DNA of 64,000 nt from a virus. Taxonomy: Duplodnaviria; Caudoviricetes. The notes below the pieces were generated by a model. That model was not told where the DNA came from. It searched no databases and was given only the letters and a program-made list of their open reading frames with translations. Location of the stretch: positions 2,213 to 66,212 of the IMG/VR virus record IMGVR_UViG_3300014205_000227. The stretch is one strand, 5' to 3'. The translations under genes and the position numbers were made by a program. Of this stretch, positions 26,515-61,583 are shown piece by piece (position 1 is the stretch's first letter; every line of letters begins with the position of its first letter).

Positions 26515-27548
26515 GCGAAACAGAAGTAGTAATTCACCAAGAGAATCCGCTTGCAAGGCGCATGCAAGGTCTCAAGCGAATCAAGAACGTTCAGCAACAA
26601 CTAGCCGAAATTGGCCGGATACGAATGGGCTTCAAGGGAGATCGAAACATTCCTCAGAAGCTCAAAGTCTTTCGCCTGACATCAACTGATCGAGACGTGC
26701 TCGAAGCCGCCGCGAACCTTTACGGTGGCGATGTAGCTGAGTGGAACCCGACCGATACGCGAAGAGAGTTCGAGCTTTTCACTAGGGTTGACAGCTTGCC
26801 GATCATGATCAGTCCGATTCCAATTAGCCAGTACATGGAAGATTGGGGCGGTGCTGAGTGTCGTCGACGTTGCGACAGTGAGACCGAAATGATCAGCGGG
26901 AAGCCTTGCATCTGCGAGTCGACCGGAAAGATCATCTGCAAGCCGACGACGCGCTTCTCTTGCATCATGGAAGAACTGCCAGGCTGGGGAGTTTGGCGTC
27001 TGGAGTCTCACGGCTGGACGGTCGCAACCGAGTTCACTCAGACCGCCGACCTTCTTCTTCAATGGGCTTTCAATCAGAACCGACCGATTCGAGCTCGGCT
27101 GACAATGAAAGAGCAACGCCGAAAAAAAGATGGCAAGTGGAATACCTTCATGGTTCCTATGCTGATGACGTATGAGTCGCCGATGCAACTGATCACGCAA
27201 GCGGCTCAAAACACTCAGATCGAACAGCAAGCTCTCGAAGCTCGACCGGGTGCTCAAGTGCTTCCGGCCAACCCTCGAGGCAGGTACTGGGCTTTGCATC
27301 AAGAACTCGGTTACCCGACCCACGACGACGGCGATCGGAAGTTGATCAACTACCGAGTCTGGACTGCGCTTCTCGGTCGACTGATCGGTTCAGGTGGCGA
27401 AATCAAAGAAGAAGAGTGGGCGAAGCTCAGCAACGTTCTTCAAGACGTGCTCGACGATAAGCATCTAGAACCCGAAGAGTGGGAAGCGTTCCGAATGGGC
27501 GATCACTCGACTCAGTTGAATTTTGGAGGCGACAACCGTGGTAGATAG
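26511..27548 (+). CDS. Gp3-like (recombination directionality factor-like) protein, probable annealing/recombination factor
   Basis: GRIRMG...FRLTS, CRRRCD...CIC...CKPTTRF and GVWRLESHGW; next to exonuclease. Confidence 0.7.
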   Translation: MSETEVVIHQENPLARRMQGLKRIKNVQQQLAEIGRIRMGFKGDRNIPQKLKVFRLTSTDRDVLEAAANLYGGDVAEWNPTDTRREFELFTRVDSLPIMISPIPISQYMEDWGGAECRRRCDSETEMISGKPCICESTGKIICKPTTRFSCIMEELPGWGVWRLESHGWTVATEFTQTADLLLQWAFNQNRPIRARLTMKEQRRKKDGKWNTFMVPMLMTYESPMQLITQAAQNTQIEQQALEARPGAQVLPANPRGRYWALHQELGYPTHDDGDRKLINYRVWTALLGRLIGSGGEIKEEEWAKLSNVLQDVLDDKHLEPEEWEAFRMGDHSTQLNFGGDNRGR

Positions 27549-29205
27549 CATCGTTCTTGGTCGCATCGTGAACACTCACAAGCCGTTCTCTTTGCCGCCA
27601 GAGATTCAGACCCACACAACCGCTATTCTCGCTCAGCGAGGCAAAGGCAAGACTTACACGGCTCGAAAGTGCTTTGAGGGCATGGTTCGAGCCGGACTTC
27701 GAGCCACGGTGCTCGACCCGGTTGGCGTATGGTGGGGAGTTCGATCTGGCGACGAACCGCTCGACGTTATCATCTTGGGCGGCAAGCATGCCGACATCGA
27801 GATCGGGAAAGAAGATGGTGAGATCATCGCTGAGATCATCGCGAACTCGAACCGTTCTTTCTTGATCGATCTATCGCACTTCCGTAAGGGGGAAATGGTT
27901 CGCTTCGTGACAGACTTCGCGGAGAACCTTTACCGGATCAACCGCGTGGGCTTGCATCTGTTCATTGACGAAGCCGACGCATTCGCGCCTCAGAAAGCCT
28001 TCGGCGACGAAAACAGAATGCTTGGAGCGATGGAAGATATCGTTCGAAGAGGCAGAGCTAGGGGACTTGGGGTAACGATGATTACCCAACGGCCGGCAGT
28101 TCTCAATAAGAACGTCTTGACACAGATCGAGCTTCTGATCTTGCTTCGAGTCGTTAGCCCTCAAGATCGAGCGGCGATTAGGGACTGGGTTTCGGTGCAT
28201 GGAACGAAAGACGAACAAGAGCTTCTGTTCTCAGAGCTTCAAGCTCTCCCGATCGGCACAGCGTTCTTTTGGTCTCCAGGTTGGCTTGAGTGCTTCGAGA
28301 AAGTCGCGGTCGACAAGATAACGACCTTCGACTCTTCTGCTACTCCTAAGCCGGGTCAAGTCATCGAGATTCCTGAGCTACTTCAAGCGACAAGCGTCGG
28401 AGATATCCAAGAACGACTTGCCGCTAACAAAGCGCCGGAAGAAGAGAAGCCCGCTTCGAATGGTCCGTGGATTGCTGAACTCACCGGCTTGAGAGACGAA
28501 GTTCGAATGCTCAGAGCTTCCCAAGAAGAAACGAAGCAGAAGATTAGAGAGTGGTATGAGTTCGGTCTCAGGGCTTTTCCTTACCTTACTTCGTCGGACA
28601 TGGAGAACTCAGAGAAGTGGATGGAACGATATCTTGAAGAAAATCGGCCGACGGAACCTCTTCGCGACGAACCTCCTTTGAGCCTCCGGTCACTTCCAGA
28701 GATCACAGCCGAAGAGCAAACTTACAGCGGTCTCACGATCACTCAACCTTTGGTGAGAATTGTGACGGCGGCTTGCATCTTGTCGAAGCTCAAACTACCG
28801 GTCAACAAAGAGACGATTGCGATCATGGCGGGACTCTCAAAGCGTGGCGGAACCTACGGAAAGAATCTAGCCGATCTCACGAAGCATCAAGTTCTCGAAC
28901 GATCGGCAGACGGCTTTGTCGTTCCAAGCTCGACCGCTGAGATTTACACGCCGACAGAGGTTCAAGACCCGGTGACTCTCTGGAAGTCGAAGCTTCCGCT
29001 CGGTCAATGGAAAATCGTGAACTACTTGATGCAGTATCCCGATACGAAGCTCTCGAAGCTCGATATCGGTCATGGAATCGGAACCGTACCGACCGGTGGA
29101 ACGTTCGGGGCAAACATCAGCGAGCTAAAGAAGCTCGGTCTGATCAGCGGAACTAATTCAGGGTTGACTCTCTCTCCGATCTTCAAAGCGAGGTCGAAGA
29201 AGTGA
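27538..29205 (+). CDS. HerA/FtsK-family ATPase (DUF87-like) with C-terminal winged-helix domains
   Basis: Walker A AQRGKGKT, Walker B LFIDEAD, RRGRARG and TQRP; GTG after GGAGG. Confidence 0.8.
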   Translation: MVDSIVLGRIVNTHKPFSLPPEIQTHTTAILAQRGKGKTYTARKCFEGMVRAGLRATVLDPVGVWWGVRSGDEPLDVIILGGKHADIEIGKEDGEIIAEIIANSNRSFLIDLSHFRKGEMVRFVTDFAENLYRINRVGLHLFIDEADAFAPQKAFGDENRMLGAMEDIVRRGRARGLGVTMITQRPAVLNKNVLTQIELLILLRVVSPQDRAAIRDWVSVHGTKDEQELLFSELQALPIGTAFFWSPGWLECFEKVAVDKITTFDSSATPKPGQVIEIPELLQATSVGDIQERLAANKAPEEEKPASNGPWIAELTGLRDEVRMLRASQEETKQKIREWYEFGLRAFPYLTSSDMENSEKWMERYLEENRPTEPLRDEPPLSLRSLPEITAEEQTYSGLTITQPLVRIVTAACILSKLKLPVNKETIAIMAGLSKRGGTYGKNLADLTKHQVLERSADGFVVPSSTAEIYTPTEVQDPVTLWKSKLPLGQWKIVNYLMQYPDTKLSKLDIGHGIGTVPTGGTFGANISELKKLGLISGTNSGLTLSPIFKARSKK

Positions 29206-36319: not shown

Positions 36320-36841
36320 CTAGCTCAAGATCGCGTTTTGATCTTGTTTTGAGTGTAAAAGAGTCTTCGCGCTTCGCATCGCATTCCCGGCCAGAATGTC
36401 CGCTCGGTGATTTCCTTTGTGGCCTGAGTGACCTTTCACCTTCATGAACGTGACCATGCGAAATTGAAGAATCATGCGCTGGACCATCGCGACCGCCGCT
36501 AAATTGTCCTTAGCTCGCTTCACTCCGGATAAGACGCCGATCGCATACTCGCTATCGGTATGGATGATGATCGACGTCTTTGGCCGGTAGTCTTTGGGAA
36601 CCGTCGCGAGCGATGCCTTGATCGCGTATAGCTCGGCAAGATTGTTTGTACCGACCTTTGCAATCGGTAGCATTCTCTCGATTCGTTCGAGCGACTGAAC
36701 ATTGATCACGATGGCGCCAACTCCCATAACCTTTGAGATCGTCTGATCGCAAGAGCCATCGCAATAAGCTAGATACTCAAAGTGGGCAGTAGGACCGCCA
36801 GAGTCATGAGCTACCGTTAAGCAAGACGGTTGATCGCTCAT
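36320..36841 (-). CDS. rnhA: Ribonuclease HI
   Basis: YCDGSC, TNNLAELYAI, IHTDSEY and KVKGHSGHKGNHRADILA: all four acidic catalytic motifs. Confidence 0.9.
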   Translation of the reverse strand: MSDQPSCLTVAHDSGGPTAHFEYLAYCDGSCDQTISKVMGVGAIVINVQSLERIERMLPIAKVGTNNLAELYAIKASLATVPKDYRPKTSIIIHTDSEYAIGVLSGVKRAKDNLAAVAMVQRMILQFRMVTFMKVKGHSGHKGNHRADILAGNAMRSAKTLLHSKQDQNAILS

Positions 36842-37623
36842 TAGACCTTGAACCCTGCCAGCGGCTTGGTGATCTTGATGATGCAGGTCTGAACGCCGGT
36901 TCCCGCCTCTTTGAAAGCGCCGGCCTGGTTCATCTGCATTACGTGTTTGTTAGCTTGCAAGAACTTTCGAAGTTCTTTGTACTTGCCGTCTGTTCTGAAA
37001 GTGCAAGCATTCGAGAGAACCGATACGACGATTCCGCCGACCGCGACAAGCTCGCAAGCATGCAAGAAGTGATCGACCTCAGCACCCTTGGCGAAGGGCG
37101 GGTTCATTATGATTCGATCCCAACCGCCGAACTTGAACTGCATAAAGTCGTCGTGGGGAACGTTGAATCCTTTGGCGTCGAGCTTTTTTACGAATCCTTC
37201 GTTCTTCTCGATACAGGTAATCCCAAAGTCGAGATCGTGAGACTTGCGATAGTGCTCGATTCGATCAGCGATATGACCTAGCCCTGCGCTCGGCTCGAGG
37301 ACGTTCGCGACTGAACTGTCGAACTCAGCAAGCTCGCAAAGGTAATCAGCGATATTTGTCGGCGTGTAGAACCACTGATCTTCTTTGATGTCGTTCTTCT
37401 TGCCATCAGACTCAATATAGTTCGCGAGAGTGTCTGTGATATCGAACGGGAAGATATGACCGGTTCCTTTCTTCCACCTGCCTTTCCAGGTCTTGAGAAC
37501 CTTGTCGACCTGATTGTATAGGTCTCTCGGCATGCCGTCGTCGTCTTTGGAGAGCTTGAGAATACAGTCTTCGCCGACGAATGAGATAGTGGCTCTTTTG
37601 AGCACGTTGATTGCTTCTGTCAT
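36841..37623 (-). CDS. N6-adenine-type DNA methyltransferase (gamma order, DarB-like)
   Basis: FYTP, VLEPSAGLG, CIEKN and IIMNPPF. Confidence 0.85.
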   Translation of the reverse strand: MTEAINVLKRATISFVGEDCILKLSKDDDGMPRDLYNQVDKVLKTWKGRWKKGTGHIFPFDITDTLANYIESDGKKNDIKEDQWFYTPTNIADYLCELAEFDSSVANVLEPSAGLGHIADRIEHYRKSHDLDFGITCIEKNEGFVKKLDAKGFNVPHDDFMQFKFGGWDRIIMNPPFAKGAEVDHFLHACELVAVGGIVVSVLSNACTFRTDGKYKELRKFLQANKHVMQMNQAGAFKEAGTGVQTCIIKITKPLAGFKV

Positions 37624-37794: not shown

Positions 37795-38232
37795 ATGGAC
37801 CTAAAACTAACAGCTAAAGCAGATGGCTCGATCAAGTTTCGAAACAAAGTGCCCGTCATTCGAAGATGGAAACTCGTATGGGAGTATCGCGAATCCCCTC
37901 CAAAGAGAATCGCTGAATCTCGACAGATCGTTCTACCGATCTTGCGAGACCCGAACGGTGCTCCGATCTTCGTTTCGATTTACACCCTGGATCTTGGCGA
38001 GATCGATGTTCAGATCGCCTTCGAGAAACCAGGCTTCGACGGCGAGTCGCTGATTCTGTCGGTGAACGTCATCGCCTTTGGTGATATGGTGCTCGCTAGA
38101 CAAGAGTTCGACGTAAGCTCGATTCTGGGAGGACTGCCGGCGAGCGGTAAAAAGGTTGTCGAGTGGACAGTTCCGGTCTCTGGACGTGGCGTCGACGTGA
38201 AGTTCGCGTTCACTGCGGAGATCACGAAGTAA
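37795..38232 (+). CDS. Hypothetical beta-rich protein
   Basis: 145 aa; GGAGGAACA RBS. Confidence 0.65.
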   Translation: MDLKLTAKADGSIKFRNKVPVIRRWKLVWEYRESPPKRIAESRQIVLPILRDPNGAPIFVSIYTLDLGEIDVQIAFEKPGFDGESLILSVNVIAFGDMVLARQEFDVSSILGGLPASGKKVVEWTVPVSGRGVDVKFAFTAEITK

Positions 38233-38912
38233 TGAGCGAAGAACTAATTCCCGATATTCAGGGATTTTTACGGGAGGGATTTTTCGAAGCGACTTATCCG
38301 GTCGAGCGTATGGTCCCTTTCCCGGGTAATGCTCGAAAAGGCGACGTCGCAAAGATCGTCGCTTCTATCAAGACAAACGGCTTTTATAAGACCGTCATCA
38401 TCCAAGAGAGCACGAACCATATCCTTGTTGGAAATCACTCGGTTCAAGCGGCGATTGAGTGCGGCTTGCGAGAATTGCCCTGCTACATAATCAACGTAGA
38501 CGATAAGACGGCGAAAGCAATCAACGTGGCAGATAACATCATCGGTGACTCAGGCACCTACGATTACAAGCTCTTACTCAGCCAAGTCGACGAACTCCAT
38601 GCTGAGAACGTCGACCTCAGTGGCCTCGGAATTGGCGAGAGCGAACTCGACACTTTTATCGAGCAAGCCAAGGCTAACGAGATCAATGACCTGAGCTTCT
38701 TGGGCGATAGCTTGAGCTTGACAACGCCCCCACCGAACCCGGCCAAACCTGGGACGGTGACGAACTTTGTCAGGCTGGGCTTTTCTTGCACGTCTGCTGA
38801 TCGTGACGCGATCATCAAGAAGGTGAACGATGCCAAGACTCAGTACGCTCTCAATTCGCAGTTCGAAGCTCTCATGAAGCTTCTCGGTTTAGATATGGCG
38901 GTGCAATCATAA
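38232..38912 (+). CDS. ParB/sulfiredoxin-fold N-terminal domain protein
   Basis: PFPGNARKGDV...SIKTNGF...ILVGNHSVQAA...AINVADN; TAATG overlap. Confidence 0.8.
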   Translation: MSEELIPDIQGFLREGFFEATYPVERMVPFPGNARKGDVAKIVASIKTNGFYKTVIIQESTNHILVGNHSVQAAIECGLRELPCYIINVDDKTAKAINVADNIIGDSGTYDYKLLLSQVDELHAENVDLSGLGIGESELDTFIEQAKANEINDLSFLGDSLSLTTPPPNPAKPGTVTNFVRLGFSCTSADRDAIIKKVNDAKTQYALNSQFEALMKLLGLDMAVQS

Positions 38913-38917
38913 GCGCG

Positions 38918-39703
38918 TTGTTTAAGACTTTCGACCTCAAAGGAACCGGACCCGTTATTGATCTTTCTGATGATCAGTATCCTACCAAGGTTCATATTTG
39001 CCAGCACGTCTTCGAAGGGCATCCGGAGTCGACGTACTACGGAATGATTACTGATGGTCGAGCTAGGCTGATCGACGTCGCTTCTCAAAACGAGTCCATC
39101 CTTCGAGCGGGAATGGTCTTTAGAATGGCTGGACCCATGGTCCTCAATGCTTCTGGCGGAACCGCTATGATCGTTGAGAGAATGCACTTCAAAGGCTATC
39201 CCACAATCGCGGGACCGCTTGAAGAGACAGGTCGACTCAAGTACGTGAACGGATGCACTGATTCTCTGATCATCCCGAATGAGAAGAAGGGCGATCCATG
39301 CTTGAACCATCTGCATATTCCGGCCGGAATTGACCAGACGTTCCATGATCATCCTTCGAGCCGCATTGGAGTGATCTTCAAGGGCGCCGGCGTCTGCTTG
39401 ACTCCTACTGATGGTTTCGATCTCAACGCGATGGTTCCGCTTCCGTTCGCAGACGTCGAAGATCGAGCGATCAACCCTAAGTCGGTTGTTGGCTGGGACC
39501 GTCATGAGCTTGAAGAGGGAATGGGCTGGTATATCCCGACAGGTCTGCTTCACTCATTCCACACAGAAGAGAAAGCTCTCGACGTTCTAGCGTGGCACCC
39601 TGAGACCGAATCAGGTCCAACCGACGAAGATCATCCTATGTCGAATAGAACGATGATCAATGACGTTCCTGCTTCTCAGATCGACTCGATTCGAACTAGA
39701 TGA
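38918..39703 (+). CDS. Cupin-superfamily metalloprotein
   Basis: QTFHDHPSSRIGVIFKGAG and YIPTGLLHSFHT metal-binding motifs. Confidence 0.75.
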   Translation: MFKTFDLKGTGPVIDLSDDQYPTKVHICQHVFEGHPESTYYGMITDGRARLIDVASQNESILRAGMVFRMAGPMVLNASGGTAMIVERMHFKGYPTIAGPLEETGRLKYVNGCTDSLIIPNEKKGDPCLNHLHIPAGIDQTFHDHPSSRIGVIFKGAGVCLTPTDGFDLNAMVPLPFADVEDRAINPKSVVGWDRHELEEGMGWYIPTGLLHSFHTEEKALDVLAWHPETESGPTDEDHPMSNRTMINDVPASQIDSIRTR

Positions 39704-40482
39704 GTCTCGGTCGAAAGCAGACATCAAGTAACGAGCACTTCGTCGAAGTCGCGGCTAACATCGAAAAGTATGTTAGCCGCGTTCATGCTTTTCGCAAGGT
39801 CGAGCAAGCGGTCGAGCGAATCAAACTCACTCAGCTTGACGATGCGGCTTATGCTTGGTCAGGTGGCAAAGACTCAATCGCTCTTCAAGTCGTCTGTCAG
39901 CAAGCCGGAATCAAGCGATGCGTTCTCGCTATTACCCGTCTGGAGTATCCAGCTTTCCTTGAGTGGGTCACAAACAATATGCCGGAAGGATTGACCGTCA
40001 TCAATACCGGCCAAGACTTAGACTGGCTTCGCTCGAACCTGCATATGCTGTTCCCGCAAGATGCTCAGACCGCGGCTAAATGGTTCTCAGCGGTTCAGCA
40101 CAAAGCCCAAGATCAATACTTCAAACAAGAGAAGCTGTCGAAGATTTTCTTAGGTCGACGTCGCGCTGATGGAAACTATATCGGCAAGCCTGGAGAGTTC
40201 TCTTACTACAAGAACGGAATACTCCGGATAAGTCCAATCTGGGACTGGACGCACGAAGAAGTCATCGCAGTGAACCACTATTTCAGCATGCCGGTTCCGC
40301 CGATCTATGCTTGGCCTAACGGGTTCATTGTGGGCACTGGATCATGGGCGGCAAGGCAGTACACCGGATCGATTGAGAACGGCTGGAAGCAGGTCTATTC
40401 AATCGATCCAAGCGTCGTCAGATATGCGGCTACCAAGCTCGCTTCGGCTGAGTCTTTTCTGGCAACGGTCGAAAGCTCATAG
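39700..40482 (+). CDS. PAPS-reductase-family PP-loop ATPase
   Basis: AWSGGKDS, FLGRRRADG and SPIWDWTHEEV. Confidence 0.85.
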   Translation: MSLGRKQTSSNEHFVEVAANIEKYVSRVHAFRKVEQAVERIKLTQLDDAAYAWSGGKDSIALQVVCQQAGIKRCVLAITRLEYPAFLEWVTNNMPEGLTVINTGQDLDWLRSNLHMLFPQDAQTAAKWFSAVQHKAQDQYFKQEKLSKIFLGRRRADGNYIGKPGEFSYYKNGILRISPIWDWTHEEVIAVNHYFSMPVPPIYAWPNGFIVGTGSWAARQYTGSIENGWKQVYSIDPSVVRYAATKLASAESFLATVESS

Positions 40483-41086
40483 CCCACTCGCTCAGAGAAG
40501 CGATTCGAATCCCCGCTTCGAACTGGGTGCAAATGTCGTTCACTCGATACGAACCGAAGTAGAAGCCGTTCTCCATCGCTAGGAACCAGAGAGGTAGCTC
40601 TCGACGTGCGATGATCAAGTGATCTCGAAGCAGAATCGCGCAGGCGATCGGCGCATCGCGGTCAACCATCTGCAAAGCTTCGACGCATCGCTCGACGGTC
40701 GGTTCGTGGCTGATAAACATCGCGAGAGCTTGAGAGTCGGTTCCTTCGAATTCTGGACTAACGAGATCCCGGAAGTTTGGAATCGTTCCGTTGTGAACTA
40801 GGGCGTAGCCGTTACCCCAAATAGGATGCGCTTCGTCGATGTTTTCGTGATCTCCCATGGTGGCAAGTCGAGCGTGGCCTATCACCGCGGCAGGCTCGCC
40901 GACATGCAAAAGCAAGTCGTCGACCGTCAAGCGTCTCGACTTATGGGTCATGATCTTTTGATCTTTGCCGTGGCCTATGTAAGCGATACCGTTTGTATCT
41001 GGCCCACGTCTTGAAGCTTCTTTGCCAAAGATCGAGAGAAGGTCGAGTTCGAGTTCGGTTCCCTTGTAACCGTAAATTCCGCACAT
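40430..41086 (-). CDS. Class II (Ntn) glutamine amidotransferase
   Basis: M-CGIYG N-terminal Cys, RRGPD, GHARLAT, AHPI, HNGTI and TDS. Confidence 0.85.
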   Translation of the reverse strand: MCGIYGYKGTELELDLLSIFGKEASRRGPDTNGIAYIGHGKDQKIMTHKSRRLTVDDLLLHVGEPAAVIGHARLATMGDHENIDEAHPIWGNGYALVHNGTIPNFRDLVSPEFEGTDSQALAMFISHEPTVERCVEALQMVDRDAPIACAILLRDHLIIARRELPLWFLAMENGFYFGSYRVNDICTQFEAGIRIASLSEWAMSFRPLPEKTQPKRAW

Positions 41087-41095
41087 AATCAGATC

Positions 41096-42232
41096 ATGCC
41101 TCAAGCGGAAACGAAATTAGCGGTCTGTTACTCAAAACAGTATGTCGAGAAGAACTGTCTCGAAATGGCGCAGGAACGTATCTCGCATGCGTTCGATATC
41201 TGCGATGACATCAGCGTCATGTTCTCAGGCGGCAAAGACTCGACCGTCGTTCTGAACCTTGCTCTCGAAGAGGCTCGAAAGCGAGGGAAGCTTCCGCTCG
41301 AAGTTGTCTTTTTTGACGAAGAGTGCATAAGCCCAGATACGGTCGACTACGTTCGAAGAGTAAGCGAGCTTCCCGACGTCGACTTCAAATGGCTCTGCCT
41401 GCCGGTCAAGCATCGAAACGGCTGTTCGCGTAAGGTTCCGTTCTGGTATCCCTGGGACCCCGCAAAGCGCGATCTCTGGGTAAGAGAGCTTCCAGACGAA
41501 GCAATCACAGAGCTTGCCGGATTAAATGGACACACGATCCCCGAAAGCAATCATCTGTTCTATATCCCAAACGGCCGCAAGACAGGGGTTCTCTTTGGCA
41601 TTCGAGCAGACGAGAGTATCACTCGACTTCGAAGCGTTACCAAGAAAGCCGAAGACAACTATATCACCTATGACGAAGCCGATCACTGGATCAAGATCAA
41701 GCCGATTTACGACTGGACTTCTCAAGACGTATGGCTCGCGCCTCATGAATTCGGATGGGACTACAACCGAACATACGATCTCTATAATCAGCTAGGCATT
41801 CCTATTCAAGCTCAGCGAGTCGCGCCTCCGTTTGGCGAAGAGCCGATGCAGTTGCTTTGGATGTGGCAGAAGTCTTACCCTGATCTTTGGGACAAGATGT
41901 CTCTCAGGGTCGAGGGAGCGAGAGCCGGTGCTCGCTACTCAAAGACTGAGGCTTTCGGGTTCGGTCGACGTGGCTGTCTGCCTGGTATGGACTGGAAAGA
42001 CATGGCGATGATGTACTATTCGCGCTGGGGCAAAGAAGGTCAAGCGATCATCGCGGAACGCTTTACGCAAGAGGTAGCTCTTCACACTAAGAGAACCAAA
42101 GGTCGAGCGGTTCCGATGGAAGAACCCGACCCTATCAGCGGTCTTTCGTGGAAGTTTCTTTGCCAGATCGCTCAACGTGGCGACTTCAAAGGTCGCAAGC
42201 AACTTCCAAAGGGAGTAAACCGAGGAACATGA
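41096..42232 (+). CDS. PAPS-reductase-family / DUF3440 protein (IbrA/YbdN-like)
   Basis: MFSGGKDS, FFDEE, GIRADES, KPIYDW, QRVAPPFGEEP and RVEGA. Confidence 0.85.
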   Translation: MPQAETKLAVCYSKQYVEKNCLEMAQERISHAFDICDDISVMFSGGKDSTVVLNLALEEARKRGKLPLEVVFFDEECISPDTVDYVRRVSELPDVDFKWLCLPVKHRNGCSRKVPFWYPWDPAKRDLWVRELPDEAITELAGLNGHTIPESNHLFYIPNGRKTGVLFGIRADESITRLRSVTKKAEDNYITYDEADHWIKIKPIYDWTSQDVWLAPHEFGWDYNRTYDLYNQLGIPIQAQRVAPPFGEEPMQLLWMWQKSYPDLWDKMSLRVEGARAGARYSKTEAFGFGRRGCLPGMDWKDMAMMYYSRWGKEGQAIIAERFTQEVALHTKRTKGRAVPMEEPDPISGLSWKFLCQIAQRGDFKGRKQLPKGVNRGT

Positions 42233-42813
42233 TTGAAGTAAATCTCGAAACCGTACCGGCAAACATCAAGGAATCGATTGAGAATGCCCCTATCTCTCGC
42301 GTCGTATGGCTCGACCGCTCGCAACTCTTCGCCAACGATTACAACCCAAACCATCAAGCGCCGACCGAGAGCAACCTGCTTACTCAGTCGATCTTCGAGG
42401 ACCTTTGGACACAGCCGATCGTCATTCGAACGACAGGCGAAATCGTCGACGGCTTCCACCGGTTCAATATCTCGACCCGTCCAGAGATACAAGCTCTCTT
42501 TGGTGAATTCGTGCCCTGCGTCGTCTTGCCAGACGCGAAAGACCGGGCTTCTCAGATGCTCTCGACCATCAGACATAACCGGGCTCGAGGCGTTCACGCA
42601 ATCCGGCCAATGGCGGCGATTGTGAAAGACCTGATGGACAATCACGAAATCACAGAAGAGGACTTGAAGGTTCGATGCGGAATGGACGAAGAAGAGATCG
42701 AGCGACTGTATGACACGATGGGTCATCCAGAGCGTGTCGGCGGTTCTCACGGTAGCTTCTCGAAGGGCTGGAAACCTGGCGAGCGGCAAGAGTTCAGAAT
42801 CGACGATAAATAA
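42229..42813 (+). CDS. ParB-like protein (IbrB/YbdM-like)
   Basis: ANDYNPN, WTQPIV, IVDGFHR and STIRHNRARGVH. Confidence 0.85.
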   Translation: MIEVNLETVPANIKESIENAPISRVVWLDRSQLFANDYNPNHQAPTESNLLTQSIFEDLWTQPIVIRTTGEIVDGFHRFNISTRPEIQALFGEFVPCVVLPDAKDRASQMLSTIRHNRARGVHAIRPMAAIVKDLMDNHEITEEDLKVRCGMDEEEIERLYDTMGHPERVGGSHGSFSKGWKPGERQEFRIDDK

Positions 42814-48427: not shown

Positions 48428-50245
48428 TTGAAAACACTTTCACGTATTGAAGAGATTGTCGCGGCAGATTTATTCTGCGGCGCCGGGGGTTCGTCGGCTG
48501 GCATTCACGCCGCATGCAAAGAGAAAGAGCTTGGCTTGAACCTTGTTGCGGTCAACCACTGGGACCTAGCGATATCGAGCCACACGGTCAACCATCCCGC
48601 CGCCGCTCACTACTGCGCGAACATCGAAGCGATCAACCCTCGCGACGTCGTACCGAGTGGCTACCTCAATCTTCTTTGGGGTTCTCCAGAATGCACTCAC
48701 CACTCGAACGCGGCTGGCGGTCGACCTAAGAACGATCAATCCCGCGCATCTGCTTGGCTCATTCTCAAGTGGCTTCAAGAGCTATACGTCGAGAACCTTG
48801 TCTTAGAGAACGTTCGAGAGTTCGTCGGCTGGGGACCGCTCGACAAGCACGGTCGACCGATCAAGAAACTCAAAGGGCAGACGTTCATGGCGTTCTTAGA
48901 AGCCATACGGTCTTTGAACTTCTCGGTCGAGTACAAGATTCTGAACGCCGCGGATTATGGCGATCCTCAAACCCGCATTCGCTGTTACGTGATCGCTCGC
49001 AACAACAACAAACCTATCCGGTGGCCAGAACCCACTCACTGCGACCGAAAGCTGATCGACAAGAAGAACTCAGGCATGTTCGGTCAAGTGCTTAAACCTT
49101 GGGTTCCAGCGCGAGAGATCATCGACTGGACCATCAAGGGTAAATCGATCTTCGGTCGAAAGAAGCCCCTCGCCAAAACGACTCTGCATCGAATCTACGC
49201 AGGATTCGAAAAGCACGGTGGCCCGAATGCCGAACCGTTCTTGATCATCTTGAGAAACCATATGGAATCGCAAGGTATCGACTCGCCAGTTCCGACCGTG
49301 ACGGCTGGCGGGAATCATATCGGTCTTTGCGTCCCTCAGATCATCAGGTACACGAAGGGCAACTCAGTACCGGTCGACGAACCTTTGCCGACTCAAACTC
49401 AGAACGAATGCTTTGGCCTGGCAGAATCGATAATCGTCGGGGCTGGCGGAACAGAAGGGAGCGGAAAGCCGAAGTCGACAAACGATCCGCTCGGAACCGT
49501 TCTGACTCATGATCGAAGAGCACTCGCTCAGACCGAGATATGCAAAGTCGACTTTATCCTGCCTCACCAAGTCTTCGACCTTACGTCGGCCGATTCTGTC
49601 GACGAACCGATGCGAACGATCAGGGCAAATAGTGGCGAAGAGAATAAAGTCGTCGAAGGAACGATCATTCCGTTCTTCGGAGAGAGACCCGGGCAAGAGC
49701 CGCGCTGTCACTCAATCGACGAACCGATTCCGACAGTTACTAGCCATGGCGCAGGAGCTTTGTCGGAAGGGTTTATCTTGCCTCATGACATTCGCAACCG
49801 TGGCATAGTCGACTCGCTCGACGAACCGTTTAGAACGATGGTCGGAGAGAACTCAAGACAGTTTAAAGTCGCAGAAGCGTTTATCGTCGAGACCGCTCAC
49901 GGTGTAGATGCCACAGAAACCGAGTCTCAGGCGGCTCAGCGTCGTTCGAGCAGTATCGACGACCCAATACGTACTGTAACGGCTTCTAGCGCGACACAGG
50001 GCATTGTCGAGGCATATCTGATCATGCCGAACGGTGATCAAGTTTTACCGATGATCGTTACCCCTCACGGAACGTTCAATCTCGACATTACTTTGAGGAT
50101 GCTCAAGCCTCACGAATTGGCCGGCGCTTTCTCTATTCCAGACTTCACTTTTAACGGCACCCTAGAAGAGAAGGTCAAGCAGATCGGAAACGCGGTCTGT
50201 CGAGAAGTGGCGAAAGCTCTTTGTCTGTCGGTGCTAGGAGATTAA
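48428..50245 (+). CDS. C5-cytosine DNA methyltransferase with seven internal (D/E)PhxT repeats
   Basis: DLFCGAGG, GSPEC, ENVREF, PQTRIR and KQIGNAV. Confidence 0.9.
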   Translation: MKTLSRIEEIVAADLFCGAGGSSAGIHAACKEKELGLNLVAVNHWDLAISSHTVNHPAAAHYCANIEAINPRDVVPSGYLNLLWGSPECTHHSNAAGGRPKNDQSRASAWLILKWLQELYVENLVLENVREFVGWGPLDKHGRPIKKLKGQTFMAFLEAIRSLNFSVEYKILNAADYGDPQTRIRCYVIARNNNKPIRWPEPTHCDRKLIDKKNSGMFGQVLKPWVPAREIIDWTIKGKSIFGRKKPLAKTTLHRIYAGFEKHGGPNAEPFLIILRNHMESQGIDSPVPTVTAGGNHIGLCVPQIIRYTKGNSVPVDEPLPTQTQNECFGLAESIIVGAGGTEGSGKPKSTNDPLGTVLTHDRRALAQTEICKVDFILPHQVFDLTSADSVDEPMRTIRANSGEENKVVEGTIIPFFGERPGQEPRCHSIDEPIPTVTSHGAGALSEGFILPHDIRNRGIVDSLDEPFRTMVGENSRQFKVAEAFIVETAHGVDATETESQAAQRRSSSIDDPIRTVTASSATQGIVEAYLIMPNGDQVLPMIVTPHGTFNLDITLRMLKPHELAGAFSIPDFTFNGTLEEKVKQIGNAVCREVAKALCLSVLGD

Positions 50246-50710: not shown

Positions 50711-50907
50711 ACCTGACCGAATATCCTCCATGCCCTCTTTGTGGTCAAAGGTTCGGCATGGATCATCGAGACCCTAAGAAGCTTTGCTTAGATTGCGAGT
50801 GTTGCGGCGATTGCGTGAATAACGATGTTTGCATCGTTCGAGGGTGCATCAATAAGCTCTCGACGATGCCCGGTCCAGCTTGGAAAGAACAATGGCAGAA
50901 GAAGTAA
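50707..50907 (+). CDS. Small Cys-rich protein
   Basis: CPLC, CLDCECCGDC; 66 aa. Confidence 0.5.
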   Translation: MNLTEYPPCPLCGQRFGMDHRDPKKLCLDCECCGDCVNNDVCIVRGCINKLSTMPGPAWKEQWQKK

Positions 50908-51932
50908 ACGAACAGTTCTGGCGACTGATGGAAGGTGACACTCTCGCAAAGCTCAAAGAGCTACCGGCGAAGAGCGTCGACTGCATTATCACGTCGCCGC
51001 CGTATTGGCAGATCAGAGACTACGGATTCAAAGGTCAATATGGGCTTGAGCCGACCATCGGTCTCTATACGGCGAACATGGTCAAGGTCTTTGAAGAGTG
51101 TCGAAGGGTGCTCAAGACTCGCGGAGTCATGTGGCTGAACATGGGAGATTGCTACTCTGAGCGCGGCGGCAAGCCATCAAATCACAACCTCGGAAACAAC
51201 GCCTGCCGATCGTATCTCAAAGCCAAGGGGTTCAAGCGCAAAGAGCTAATCGGTCAACCTTGGCGACTCGCGTTCGCTCTTAGCGATGCTGGATGGTACT
51301 TGAGGCTCGACGTCGTTTGGAATAAGCCTAACGCGATGCCTGAAAGTGCGAGAGATCGACCGTCTCGCTCTCATGAGTACATCTTCTTGCTCTCAAAGTC
51401 CGCGAAATACCTCTTCGACAAAGACGCGATCAAAGAGAAGGTGACAGGTAACGCTCACAGTCGTGGCGAGGGGATAAATCCGAAAGCGCAGAAGCAAGTA
51501 ACAGGCTGGGATTTAGAACCCGGTCGACACGGTTCTCGACATCGAGGAAAGTCGGGAGGTCCCAACAGCCGAATACACGTTACTCGCGACGTCGCTCAGC
51601 GTCCGCCTCAAGCTAGACAGAACGAAAGCATGAGCGCGGCTCTCAGTGGCCTAGTCGACTATCGGTCATGTCGCTCGGTCTGGGATATCGCAACGAAGGG
51701 AACCTCAGAAGATCACTATGCGACCTTCCCCGAAGAACTCGCGAGACGGTGCATCTTGTCAGGCTGTCCGCTCGGCGGAGTAGTGCTCGATCCGTTCATC
51801 GGATCTGGAACGACTATGAAGGTTGCGCTCGAACTCGGTCGCTCTTGCATCGGCATAGACCTTGATCCGAAGTGCATCCAGATGTCGACCGCGAAAGCTC
51901 AGAACGTAAACCTTCCCCTGATTCACTTCTGA
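50892..51932 (+). CDS. N4-cytosine/N6-adenine DNA methyltransferase (beta class)
   Basis: ITSPPYW, WNKPN, HEYIFLL, HYATFP and VLDPFIGSGTT. Confidence 0.9.
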   Translation: MAEEVNEQFWRLMEGDTLAKLKELPAKSVDCIITSPPYWQIRDYGFKGQYGLEPTIGLYTANMVKVFEECRRVLKTRGVMWLNMGDCYSERGGKPSNHNLGNNACRSYLKAKGFKRKELIGQPWRLAFALSDAGWYLRLDVVWNKPNAMPESARDRPSRSHEYIFLLSKSAKYLFDKDAIKEKVTGNAHSRGEGINPKAQKQVTGWDLEPGRHGSRHRGKSGGPNSRIHVTRDVAQRPPQARQNESMSAALSGLVDYRSCRSVWDIATKGTSEDHYATFPEELARRCILSGCPLGGVVLDPFIGSGTTMKVALELGRSCIGIDLDPKCIQMSTAKAQNVNLPLIHF

Positions 51933-59233: not shown

Positions 59234-59794
59234 ATGACAGAAGAGAAACCGCTCTGGGAGCAACTAGAAGAAGAGTCAGACGAAAATTACATTCTCTTCT
59301 GCGCGTATCGCGACCTTGGTCCAGATCGAACTGTTCCTAAACTTCTAGCCAAGCGGGGGAAGGGTAACGAGAATTACACGTATGAACTCTCGCGCAAATG
59401 GAACTGGGTTCAGCGATGCAATAAGTGGGATATACACCTAGCCACGCTCAGTGCTGAATCTCAAGAGAATTCTCACAAAGGCAAGATCGATAACTATCGG
59501 TCTCGGAACGAAGAGTTCGCCAAAGATGCCCAACAGACAGCGCGAATCATGCTCGCGGTAGCCAAGACGAAATTATCGGCCGCCGTAACGAAGTTCAAGG
59601 GAACTGAGGGCATGAACGAAGAAGAGAGAGCCGCGCATATCGAGAACGTGCCGATTGATCGAGCGATCGGACCTTTGGTTCGCTCAGCGGTTCTAGTGTT
59701 TAACTCCGGATCGATGGCAGAAGCTCAGGCTCTCGGTATCGATCAGATGCTCAACATGCTCGAACCCGGGGACGTCGACGAAGATGAGGAGTAA
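59234..59794 (+). CDS. Terminase small subunit
   Basis: LWEQLEEES...FCAYRDLGPDRT...WNWVQRCNKWD; precedes TerL. Confidence 0.75.
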   Translation: MTEEKPLWEQLEEESDENYILFCAYRDLGPDRTVPKLLAKRGKGNENYTYELSRKWNWVQRCNKWDIHLATLSAESQENSHKGKIDNYRSRNEEFAKDAQQTARIMLAVAKTKLSAAVTKFKGTEGMNEEERAAHIENVPIDRAIGPLVRSAVLVFNSGSMAEAQALGIDQMLNMLEPGDVDEDEE

Positions 59795-61583
59795 GCTCCA
59801 GCGACTTCTCGATAAGTCGTCGATCATGCGCCTCCCCATGGTCAAGAAGGTTCGGCGCCATCGACAGCGCCTGATCAGCCTTTCGCCAGATCGAGCCATC
59901 GATATCATCAATGAGTGCTTGCGAGCCTCTTGGCCTACCGAAGAGATCAGGGCTAATCTTGAGTATCGACGCGCAGTATACGAACGCTGTCAGCTAGACG
60001 CCAATGAGCAAGAGAAAGAGAATGAGAAGTGCTCGAAAGACTGTCGGTACTGGATCGAAACCTGGGCTTGGACATTCGACCCACGTCTTAGCGAAGGTAA
60101 GTTTCGACCGTTCTTGCTGTTCCCGGTTCAGGTCGACTATATCGACTGGCTGAACCTTCGATACAAGAACCAAGAAGATGGCATAGTCGAGAAGAGCCGC
60201 GATATGGGCTTCTCTTGGCTCTCGGTTGCTTGGGCAACTTGGAAGTTCCTGTTCGAAGATGGTTTTACTTGCGTCTTCGGCTCGAACCTTATTCGCAACG
60301 TCGACACGCTCGGCAACCATAAGAGCCTGTTCGAGAAGATTCGGATGATCTTGCGAGCACTGCCGGTCTGGATGCTTCCGAAGGGGTTCTCGAAGCGAGC
60401 GCATCTAAACACTAAGCTCAGAATCATCAACCCTGAGAGAAACGGCATTATCACAGGTGAGGGAGGTCATAACATCGGCAGATCAGACCGCGCCTCAATC
60501 GTCTTTATCGACGAAGCCGCGCACGTCGAGCGAGCTGAAGAGGTCGAGCAAGCACTATCTCAGACGACCGACTGTCGCATCTGGGGATCAACGCCGAAAG
60601 GTTCTGGCAACCTCTTTTACACCAAGGTTAAGTCTGATCAGTTCCCGGTCTTTCGTTTTCACTGGCAACAAGACCCGAGAAAGAATCGCTGGATACTTCG
60701 CAACCCAGACGGCTCGGTCTTTGCAGAAGGTCATGGCGAATGCTCAGCCCCGGCCGGCATGGTCCCGTTTTATCCTTGGTATGAAGATGCCAAGAAACGA
60801 TTCACGCCGCTCACGGTCGCTCAAGAGATCGATATCGATTACGCAGGTTCAATCGATGACGTCGTATTTCCCTCGCACTGGGTTCAGGCATGCGTTACGA
60901 TCAGTCTCACCCCCGGCGACTATCGAGAAGCAGGTCTGGACGTCGGCGGTAGTGGTAGCGATGGAGCGGAGAGCGTTTATACCCTTGTCGCCATGCCGGT
61001 CGCTCTCAAGATAAAGCGATGGTCTGGGCTTTCACCGGTTAAGACAGCGCGTCGAGCTATCCGGTACGCGAGAGAAGATCAGGTGCATTCGTTCAAGTGG
61101 GACCACACTGGCGTAGGCGAGGGCGTCTCTGGTGAGATTCAAGACTCAGCAACCGCCGAAGATGTCACTTTCAAGATGCAGATGGTCAAGTGGGGCGGCA
61201 AGCCATCGAAACGAATGTGGCCTAGTGGTCGACGCTCGAATCAAATGTTCATGAGTGCCAAAGCCGAAGATCACTGGATATTGCGCGAGCGCATGCGAAA
61301 GACTTACGAGCACGTTCTCTTTCTCCAAGGTCATCCCGAGGGAGTCGAGCACCCACTCGACGAACTGCTATCGATTCCGAAAGACAATAAGCTGATCAGC
61401 CAACTCTCGACCATCAGGTTCGAAGAGCGAGACAACGGCAAAATTACGATAGAATCAAAACTCAAGATGAAGAAGCGGAACGTAGCATCGCCCGATATTG
61501 CGGAGTCGCTGATCATCGCCTGTTCGCCTGATCATCCTGAGCTTGAAGTAACTGGCTCGCACTCAGAAGAAGTCTATGCTTAA
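59784..61583 (+). CDS. Terminase large subunit
   Basis: EKSRDMGFSW (Walker A-like), FIDEAA (Walker B), GLDVGG and SPDIAESL nuclease motifs. Confidence 0.9.
   Translation: MRSKLQRLLDKSSIMRLPMVKKVRRHRQRLISLSPDRAIDIINECLRASWPTEEIRANLEYRRAVYERCQLDANEQEKENEKCSKDCRYWIETWAWTFDPRLSEGKFRPFLLFPVQVDYIDWLNLRYKNQEDGIVEKSRDMGFSWLSVAWATWKFLFEDGFTCVFGSNLIRNVDTLGNHKSLFEKIRMILRALPVWMLPKGFSKRAHLNTKLRIINPERNGIITGEGGHNIGRSDRASIVFIDEAAHVERAEEVEQALSQTTDCRIWGSTPKGSGNLFYTKVKSDQFPVFRFHWQQDPRKNRWILRNPDGSVFAEGHGECSAPAGMVPFYPWYEDAKKRFTPLTVAQEIDIDYAGSIDDVVFPSHWVQACVTISLTPGDYREAGLDVGGSGSDGAESVYTLVAMPVALKIKRWSGLSPVKTARRAIRYAREDQVHSFKWDHTGVGEGVSGEIQDSATAEDVTFKMQMVKWGGKPSKRMWPSGRRSNQMFMSAKAEDHWILRERMRKTYEHVLFLQGHPEGVEHPLDELLSIPKDNKLISQLSTIRFEERDNGKITIESKLKMKKRNVASPDIAESLIIACSPDHPELEVTGSHSEEVYA

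Follow-up and report, generated by a model that had tools for sequence, protein, structure and literature searches.

The IbrA/IbrB pair ranks among the commonest phage and prophage genes without a known biochemistry. It occurs on the ECOR-9 island of Escherichia coli, as YbdN/YbdM in strain K-12 and, as PHROG families 2302 and 2159, in many cultured phages; IbrA is a protein with PAPS_reduct and DUF3440 domains and IbrB has the ParB fold. The pair was reportedly first described as an activator of Eib protein expression in E. coli. Literature searches on IbrA/IbrB, YbdN/YbdM, DUF3440 and PAPS reductase with ParB found no biochemical study. The window analysed here, a 64 kb stretch of the 66,212-bp IMG/VR record IMGVR_UViG_3300014205_000227 from a virus of the Caudoviricetes, carries the same pair within a six-gene cassette that adds a bicupin, a second ParB-fold protein (ParB1), a second PP-loop enzyme (PP2) and a glutamine amidotransferase (GATase). 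The cassette is a rare long form of one that is common in uncultured phages. We propose that it encodes a ParB-guided, ATP-dependent ligation or amidation pathway that acts on phage DNA before packaging, and we put the probability of this reading at about 0.5. The literature searched holds no paper that describes the cassette or gives IbrA/IbrB a reaction. To that extent the preliminary description of this locus, which knew of no characterized system with the full set, was correct; the set is nevertheless a variant of a very common uncharacterized cassette and not a singular one.

Two papers from 2025–2026, one on an asparagine-synthetase-like ligase that works on a DNA base and one on ParB-activated DNA dioxygenases, make a DNA-directed role plausible. 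CmoY, an asparagine-synthetase homologue of Synechococcus phage S-B43, ligates glycine to 5-carboxymethylcytosine in DNA; a glutaminase domain is found in a second cluster of such ligases, and the CmoX/CmoY contigs often encode ParBc proteins (PMC12783734). The points of likeness to CmoA/CmoX/CmoY are thus an ATP-dependent, AMP-forming PP-loop ligase acting on a base-borne carboxylate, a glutamine-hydrolysing sister cluster and the ParBc proteins. The window differs in that its PP-loop enzymes belong to the PAPS_reduct family and not to Asn_synthase, which is found only in the bacterial counterpart described below, and in that it has a separate GATase protein and a bicupin. CmoX is recognized by an SPPC motif and by an Arg in place of HhaI Asn304 (PMC12783734), whereas the C5-methyltransferase of the window has GSPEC and GNAV at these places. 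In the second system, the phage ParB homologue ParB176 is required for a post-replicative thymine dioxygenase (5mYOX176) on double-stranded DNA, and ParB-dependent dioxygenase clusters are reportedly linked to GATases, kinases and amino-acid:DNA transferases (PMC13229309). The metal enzyme of the window is instead a bicupin, there are two ParB-fold proteins in place of one and no thymidylate synthase homologue was found in the record.

Three older systems share parts of the same logic. DndABCDE and SspABCD also combine a PAPS-reductase-fold PP-loop ATP pyrophosphatase with a protein of the ParB superfamily, but the cassette is without the Fe–S or persulfide cysteines, the desulfurase, DndD/E and SspB/C; a PADLOC scan of the six cassette proteins, the only proteins scanned, gave no match to DndD or DndE. 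In Dpd and phage 7-deazaguanine modification a ParB-like ATPase assists the modification of a DNA base, and a GATase is joined to the PP-loop protein QueC in some phages (PMC12839542 and general knowledge). There is no TGT/DpdA in our record (no match to the TGT family PF01702, for which the controls matched in 14 of 14 genomes) and the QueC match, at 16.4 bits, is below the cut-off. Asparagine synthetase B and the two-subunit GMP synthase adenylate an oxygen that is then attacked by ammonia from glutamine, a logic that PP2 and the GATase would appear to share. PP2 differs from these enzymes in its PAPS-reductase fold, and PP2 and the GATase are separate genes, on opposite strands in the window; the bacterial counterpart has a true AsnB-like fusion beside the same bicupin.

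The six open reading frames (ORFs) of the cassette lie where the preliminary description had placed them and each has the domain that it named. ParB1 (38232–38912, + strand) matches ParB_N (E = 1.7e-5) and phrog_723 (E = 1e-32). The bicupin (38918–39703, +) has a TTG start and, for this member, a weak match to Cupin_2. PP2 (39700–40482, +) carries an SGGKDS motif and matches PAPS_reduct (E = 4e-6, above the cut-off) and phrog_424 (E = 5e-20). The GATase (40430–41086, − strand) is a class II N-terminal nucleophile (Ntn) enzyme that begins MCGIYG, with matches to GATase_6 (E = 4e-8) and to the N-terminal domains of GlmS, PurF and AsnB. The IbrA-like protein (41096–42232, +) matches PF01507 with 46 bits (cut-off 22.5), DUF3440 (PF11922) with 42.1 bits (cut-off 25) and phrog_2302 with E = 4e-85, and its coupled partner, the IbrB-like ParB protein (42229–42813, +), matches phrog_2159 with E = 1.1e-52 and ParB_N weakly; the assignment as IbrA and IbrB, on PAPS_reduct, DUF3440 and the two PHROG families, is therefore the same as that given before. 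The genes are tightly packed, as had been noted: 5 bp separate ParB1 from the bicupin, the bicupin/PP2 and IbrA/IbrB junctions are ATGA overlaps (the latter at 42229–42232), PP2 and the GATase converge and share 53 bp at their 3' ends, and the start codons of the GATase and IbrA diverge across 9 bp. The preliminary description did not mention that the GATase runs opposite to its five neighbours, leaving 613 bp between PP2 and IbrA without a + strand gene.

In IMG/VR, an alignment-based scan detected the bicupin on 285 viral contigs, and 80 viral loci were fetched. Only this kind of scan worked; peptide patterns taken from single cupin and GATase sequences gave no match there, nor did megablast of the cluster against GenBank phages or tblastn of the bicupin against 50,697 GenBank phage records, 223 of which have an IbrA homologue. 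IbrA adjoins the bicupin in 77 of the 80 loci and IbrB does so in 73, and a ParB1-type gene lies upstream of the bicupin or of IbrA in most. All-against-all ORF clustering gave two gene orders, ParB1–bicupin–(PP2)–(GATase)–IbrA–IbrB and ParB1–IbrA–IbrB–bicupin–(PP2–GATase). In the second of these, IbrA is preceded by a 211-aa protein that is likewise of the ParB1 type, so that two ParB-fold proteins belong to the core. The conserved core is ParB1, bicupin, IbrA and IbrB, and most of the 80 loci show it in order. Three loci (L022, L064 and L087) have the six-gene set of the window with all genes on one strand, and three more (L066, L073 and L025) have it in part. Dozens of unrelated viral contigs share this gene set and order with proteins that are only 25–55% identical, which places the cluster far beyond chance and agrees with the earlier view that it is one functional module. 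The preliminary description would have given up its scheme if the cupin and GATase did not occur together with IbrA/IbrB in related phages; among the fetched loci the cupin accompanies IbrA/IbrB in 77 of 80, and the GATase accompanies the pair in 11 loci and the window, so that the scheme is not refuted on this point. A terminase gene is found at most three genes downstream of the cassette in 59 of 64 informative loci, and these terminases comprise three large-terminase families and one small-terminase family.

ParB1 also matches phrog_498 (ParB-MTase, E = 8e-26) and the N-terminal region of the PADLOC family MTase_II (E = 4e-17), and by these matches it is assigned to a type of ParB-fold protein that also occurs in fusion with phage DNA methyltransferases. 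Its Box II in the window has a Ser (GNHS) where 87% of ParB1-type proteins have an Arg. IbrB keeps a Box II-like DGxHR motif, in which Asp74 is conserved in 85%, Gly75 in 97% and Arg78 in 98% of the sequences. An alignment of 72 IbrA sequences shows Ser44, Gly46, Lys47, Asp48 and Ser49 of the PP-loop to be invariant and no invariant Cys; at the position where 88% have a Cys, the window phage has a Ser. Real PAPS reductases are without the ATP-pyrophosphatase PP-loop motif. Both PP-loop proteins of the cassette keep this motif perfectly and are therefore not true PAPS reductases. Outside phages, the nearest relatives of PP2 and IbrA, in weak matches, are archaeal fusions of a PUA domain (an RNA-binding domain) to a PAPS-reductase domain. 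Sequence searches of the PDB with IbrA and IbrB gave no useful match, and PADLOC has no family for the bicupin, PP2, the GATase or IbrB.

A search of 5.8 billion proteins returned 186 homologues of the bicupin at 35–53% identity, and their alignment is unusually well conserved, with 36 invariant columns. The cupin motifs are those of the C-terminal barrel, His143-x-His145...Gly156 and Gly201-x5-Pro207-x-Gly209-x2-His212, and they supply a three-His site (His143, His145 and His212) with an Arg at the position that is usually a Glu in cupins. His131, His133, His227, His239, Cys113 and Cys160 are also invariant, and Cys128 is nearly so (at least 90%). All 26 aligned relatives match Cupin_2 (best E = 8e-15), Pfam gives generic cupin families only and a sequence search of the PDB gave no useful match. 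The AlphaFold2 model (mean predicted local distance difference test score, pLDDT, 89.9) has two jelly-roll barrels, and we regard the bicupin fold as certain on this model; the His-triad cupin of the preliminary description thus keeps its three-His site but gains a second barrel. The best matches in VIA-align are bicupins of the DUF861/(S)-ureidoglycine aminohydrolase type, with Z-scores of 19.4–18.1 and a root-mean-square deviation (r.m.s.d.) of ∼3.0 over ∼199 residues; for the closest, PDB entry 1sfn, Z is 19.4 and the r.m.s.d. is 3.0 over 199 residues. Salicylate and gentisate 1,2-dioxygenases, BacB, KduI and quercetinase come next (Z = 15–17), and AerE is another of the structural neighbours that act on small molecules. 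The three-His site tilts the balance to O2 chemistry, while hydrolases and isomerases are among the nearest folds. The same site also suggested that the bicupin might be a thiol dioxygenase, with a sulfiredoxin-like IbrB and a sulfonucleotide enzyme as its partners. We dropped this idea as a lead since the bicupin has no CDO or ADO family match and there is no conserved Cys in IbrA, PP2 or IbrB.

Some 24 loci have a second PP-loop gene after the bicupin. It has a long form (∼260 aa, 38–51% identical to PP2 of the window) and a shorter, more distant form, both of which keep SGGKDS and neither of which has a conserved Cys. Ser54, Gly56, Lys57, Asp58 and Ser59 of PP2 are invariant (Gly55 in at least 90%), as are Gly152, Arg153 and Arg154 of a GRR motif and Asn159. 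Profile matches in the PDB are to CysD, TtuA, PAPS reductase and GMP synthase subunit B, and relatives of PP2 form 177 representative clusters at E ≤ 1e-30, all of ∼260 aa. Across nine GATase sequences the invariant class II catalytic residues are Cys2, Arg27, Gly28, Arg73, Thr76, His98-Asn99-Gly100 and Asp117. The long form of PP2 is present in the window and in all 11 fetched loci that bear the GATase, and loci without the long form never have the GATase; in a 13th GATase case, the contig L170, only a C-terminal remnant of PP2 is left. The GATase-bearing loci occupy at least six separate places on the bicupin tree, so the link between PP2 and the GATase is not a single inherited accident, with lineages that are not fully independent. 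PP2 is presumed to be the synthetase partner of the GATase, and the chemistry of the asparagine-synthetase or GMP-synthase type that the preliminary description gave to the two is a reasonable suggestion.

The GATase is in the sense orientation in the 11 other fetched loci; in the window it fills the same place but is inverted. The homologue closest to the window's copy (33% identity) is on L170, an independent 38.5-kb contig from the Joint Genome Institute (JGI), and is likewise antisense, lying 24 bp from a divergent IbrA (54% identical to IbrA of the window) that is followed by IbrB and the terminase. The inversion is therefore no assembly error but a stable trait of a sub-lineage. In L170, the closest relative of the cassette, a deletion has joined the ParB1 N-terminus to the 70-odd C-terminal residues of PP2 (L170:8001–8723), with loss of the bicupin and of the PP-loop. 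Its GATase (8632–9279, −) keeps all of the catalytic motifs and its IbrA and IbrB are intact; IbrA is a possible partner of the GATase. The inverted repeats that flank the GATase are only short, imperfect pairs, and a promoter and terminator scan at this gene gave nothing above the shuffled controls. A different pairing of a GATase with a ligase is seen on another phage contig (L171:7121–8675), where a related Ntn GATase directly follows Amidoligase_2 and HARE-HTH genes near terminase and portal genes.

The bicupin family is also present in 362 species-level bacterial genomes, from which 80 loci were fetched. In 41 of these (for example L005:6295–11504, and others among L090–L163) the bicupin, at 40–47% identity and with all invariant residues kept, is part of a trio with an AsnB-like enzyme and a ∼340-aa protein. 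The AsnB-like partner combines GATase_7 and Asn_synthase domains and shows an SGGxDS motif. In the ∼340-aa protein a four-Cys zinc ribbon at the N-terminus is followed by a C-terminal domain with best matches to the Toprim domain of Topo VI-A/Spo11, MksG and JetD; this match is weak and consistent across methods (Pfam E = 0.0025 and 0.012 for two members, PDB profile E = 0.027, and Foldseek E = 5e-3 with a probability of 1.0 and a TM-score of ∼0.3). The phyla and families with the trio include Gemmatimonadota, Armatimonadota, Competibacteraceae, Planctomycetota, Acidobacteriota and Myxococcota. There is no IbrA or IbrB in the trio loci, PADLOC has no family for any of the three proteins and none of them has a specific Pfam name. 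Most of the 41 loci come from metagenome-assembled genomes. In Competibacteraceae the trio lies between pntAB and glyQS, in a small island that also encodes an HNH nuclease and a 342-aa protein. The high-GC bacterial loci made ORF clustering too noisy to go beyond the tblastn census.

Elsewhere in bacteria the bicupin is found with nonribosomal peptide synthetases (NRPS), or with an AMP-binding-methyltransferase gene and a class II aminoacyl-tRNA synthetase (aaRS)-like gene. The culturable Maricaulis likewise has it in a setting other than the trio. One locus (L175:8001–13725) encodes a 607-aa fusion of Biopterin_H, an aromatic amino-acid hydroxylase, to the bicupin, followed by AMP-binding and ATP-grasp_4 genes and preceded by a JmjC gene; this cluster looks like one for the tailoring of a small molecule or peptide. 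In cyanobacteria (L140:7734–9512, L150:7941–9500 and L133:3255–7724) the bicupin is divergent from a WD40-repeat protein of ∼1,489 aa, and in two genomes there is a fusion to a trypsin-like protease. The thread common to the bacterial contexts is the presence of enzymes for carboxylate activation and amide-bond formation.

From the domains, catalytic motifs, synteny and terminase-adjacent position described above, we infer the substrate, the product and every step of the pathway that we propose. The two ParB-fold proteins would recruit the enzymes to duplex DNA or serve as their activators on it, much as ParB176 does with the phage thymine dioxygenase. IbrA and ATP would then adenylate a target oxygen, which could be a carboxyl or carbonyl group of a base or possibly a backbone phosphate, and an amine would displace AMP. 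The bicupin may make or tailor the donor or the appended group, its bacterial relatives being companions of enzymes that activate amino acids or carboxylates. In the long form, PP2 and the GATase would use ammonia from glutamine to make an amide or amine out of a carboxylate or oxo function, as asparagine synthetase and CmoY-type ligases do; the two would thus be an AsnB-like amidating add-on within a DNA-directed pathway. For action on DNA we count the methyltransferase-fused type of ParB1, the three methyltransferases of the phage, the adjacency to the terminase, the resemblance to PUA-PAPS-reductase proteins and the Toprim-like partner in bacteria. A narrower version, in which IbrA adenylates the DNA itself (at a base carbonyl or carboxyl or at a phosphate) and an amine is then attached under the guidance of two ParB-fold activators, is offered tentatively, and we think it rather less than an even bet; this would be an undescribed post-replicative modification. 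Glutamine-derived ammonia would serve as this amine in the long form, the other candidate being an amino-acid-like compound made by the bicupin.

Several points weigh against the DNA-directed pathway. No enzyme of the cassette is known to act on DNA, and the cassette is without a base-flipping methyltransferase-like enzyme, a transglycosylase or a glycosyltransferase. The ParB fold binds CTP, ATP or GTP and also serves as a kinase module for small molecules or proteins, as in SerK, SbnI and sulfiredoxin (PMC12704722). The cassette of the window is itself ∼17 kb from the large terminase, so that the terminase-adjacent position of the other loci does not apply to it. The antisense GATase has no room for a promoter of its own in the 9-bp spacer, and its persistence in L170 in the absence of the bicupin and the PP2 PP-loop weakens an obligate pairing of PP2 with the GATase. 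No fusion of the GATase to PP2 was seen among the best 150 of 489 PP2 matches, one longer match having a membrane-like N-terminus. On the bacterial side, the Toprim assignment is weak, some of the AsnB-like partners have no N-terminal Cys, so not all of them can use glutamine, and the contexts other than the trio point to amino-acid or peptide substrates and not to DNA.

These last contexts lead to the alternative that survives best, which we nevertheless consider unlikely, at about the weight of an outsider with a genuine case: the cassette would make or alter a small molecule derived from an amino acid or nucleotide. The bicupin would tailor the substrate, the PP-loop enzymes would form amide bonds, the GATase would give ammonia and the ParB-fold proteins would be NTP-dependent kinases or regulators (NTP, nucleoside triphosphate). 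The bacterial bicupins that accompany NRPS, AMP-binding, ATP-grasp and class II aaRS-like genes, or are fused to a hydroxylase or protease, fit this, and so do the small-molecule substrates of BacB, AerE and ureidoglycine aminohydrolase among the structural neighbours. CysD and FAD synthetase, both of the PAPS-reductase fold, adenylylate small acceptors, and the ParB fold includes the free-serine kinases SerK and SbnI as well as sulfiredoxin (PMC12704722). Each cassette, however, has two ParB-fold proteins, of which ParB1 belongs to the type known from DNA methyltransferase fusions, and its place before the terminase is kept across three terminase families (59 of 64 loci). It also has no transporter and no obvious use for a metabolite, and the bacterial trio has its Toprim-like partner and, in Competibacteraceae, an adjacent HNH nuclease.

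Modification of RNA has a slim chance. IbrA and PP2 would here adenylate the base carbonyl of a tRNA, like TilS, TtcA or TtuA, and so retune host or phage tRNA. To our knowledge, the PP-loop enzymes that act on nucleobases are so far all RNA enzymes, DndC, SspD and CmoY excepted, and the weak matches of PP2 and IbrA extend beyond the PUA-PAPS-reductase fusions to the PP-loop regions of TtuA and TilS. Against this, no cassette protein has an RNA-binding domain (PUA, THUMP or TRAM), neither PP2 nor IbrA has a conserved Cys for thiolation, and the partners are ParB-fold proteins in a cassette that adjoins the terminase.

The scheme of the preliminary description, taken here to mean that the cupin oxidizes a base (perhaps a methylated one) to a carboxylate that a PP-loop enzyme adenylates and ammonia from the GATase converts to a carboxamide, now seems improbable. 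A three-His cupin site is typical of O2-activating dioxygenases that need no cosubstrate, the salicylate and gentisate dioxygenase matches reach Z ≃ 17 and the phage encodes three DNA methyltransferases; amidation of a base-borne carboxylate by a PP-loop enzyme and a GATase is, moreover, predicted for one CmoY-type cluster (PMC12783734). Oxidation of a base by the cupin has nonetheless found no support, for the nearest folds include hydrolases, isomerases and ring-cleaving dioxygenases, and the bicupin shows no kinship with TET/JBP or AlkB-type 2-oxoglutarate oxygenases. (The TET/JBP profile PF12851 had no match in the record, yet it also matched no control genome.) Most cassettes are without PP2 and the GATase, and oxidation followed by amidation therefore cannot be the core function; the same bicupin occurs in bacteria with no methyltransferase nearby, and the C5-methyltransferase, with GSPEC and GNAV, is not CmoX-like. 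The accompanying argument that the phage has no DNA polymerase and hence modifies its DNA after replication is not supported, as its premise rests on a linear record that is ∼75% complete by CheckV; no family A or B DNA polymerase was found in that record. The absences of a polymerase, TGT, thymidylate synthase and desulfurase are, with the record incomplete, weak evidence.

We find equally little room for a regulatory or packaging role, in which the ParB-like proteins act at pac or cos sites or as transcription regulators and the enzymes are unrelated accessories. The position beside the terminase in 59 of 64 loci speaks for it, but the catalytic residues of four enzymes are strongly conserved across proteins that are only 25–55% identical, which argues that catalysis is the selected function.

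Weakest of all, and very improbable, is phosphorothioation of the Dnd/Ssp kind with a host cysteine desulfurase, IbrA standing for DndC or SspD and IbrB for DndB: the pairing of a ParB fold with a PP-loop enzyme mirrors DndB/DndC, IbrA has weak partial matches to DndC and BrxP models and host IscS can replace DndA (PMC10853773), but the analogy, which the preliminary description had also drawn, fails on the score of IbrA against the DndC equivalog TIGR03183 (17.7 bits; cut-off 290.4), on the lack of an invariant Cys in IbrA and of a conserved one in PP2, on the lack of a match to cysteine desulfurase (PF00266) in the 66-kb record, which is ∼75% complete and for which host IscS could substitute, and on the cassette itself, where no DndD/E-like or SspB/C-like genes were seen and where the bicupin and the GATase have no role in phosphorothioation.

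To return to the DNA-directed pathway, the parts that the long form adds to IbrA/IbrB (the bicupin, the second PP-loop enzyme and the glutaminase) narrow the range of likely chemistry and point to an ATP-dependent adenylation followed by nitrogen transfer. The handles for further work are a four-gene core that sits before the packaging genes on hundreds of uncultured phage contigs, an optional PP2 and GATase, and the bacterial trio. New here are the census of the bicupin core, the linkage of PP2 to the GATase, the conserved antisense GATase, the bacterial trio and the negative tests for Dnd, Dpd and CmoX. If IbrA does adenylate DNA, the reaction would be a DNA counterpart of lysidine- or CmoY-type chemistry or a nitrogen analogue of phosphorothioation, and would give IbrA/IbrB a biochemical function. 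Should the product be a new DNA modification, it would bear on phage escape from restriction and on sequencing and biotechnology tools, and it would give a function to a very large family now annotated as 'PAPS reductase', a name that is almost certainly wrong.

The cassette of the window is preceded by a 145-aa ORF (37795..38232, +) that follows a GGAGGAACA ribosome-binding site and is translationally coupled to ParB1 by a TAATG overlap. It belongs to no known family (no Pfam, PHROG or NCBIfam match), and among the ORFs of 83 viral loci none clustered with it. In this phage the operon may begin with it, but it is not a conserved member of the cassette. The three DNA methyltransferases are of the C5 type (48428–50245), the SPPY type (50880–51932) and the NPPF type (36841–37623, −), the last beside RNase H; an exonuclease is also encoded. 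The C5-type enzyme has 605 aa with an unusual GSPEC motif IV, a QIGNAV motif and a long insertion, and a sequence search of the PDB with it gave no useful match.

The tetranucleotides TCGA and GATC occur at 4.0 and 2.6 times the expectation from base composition over the whole window (1–64000). We considered the TCGA excess as a mark of the cassette's target site and rejected it, since chromosomal loci of Planctomycetota (L158 and L163) carry an equal signature (TCGA 4.2 times, GATC 3.0–3.4 times), which makes it look host-like. Among the viral loci the signature is found only in the high-GC ones that bear the GATase. As a compositional trait it gives a hint that the host is a planctomycete. 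Far from the large terminase, which lies at 59784–61583, a 560-aa ORF (27523–29205) has a partial match to the large terminase family phrog_2666 (E = 2e-20).

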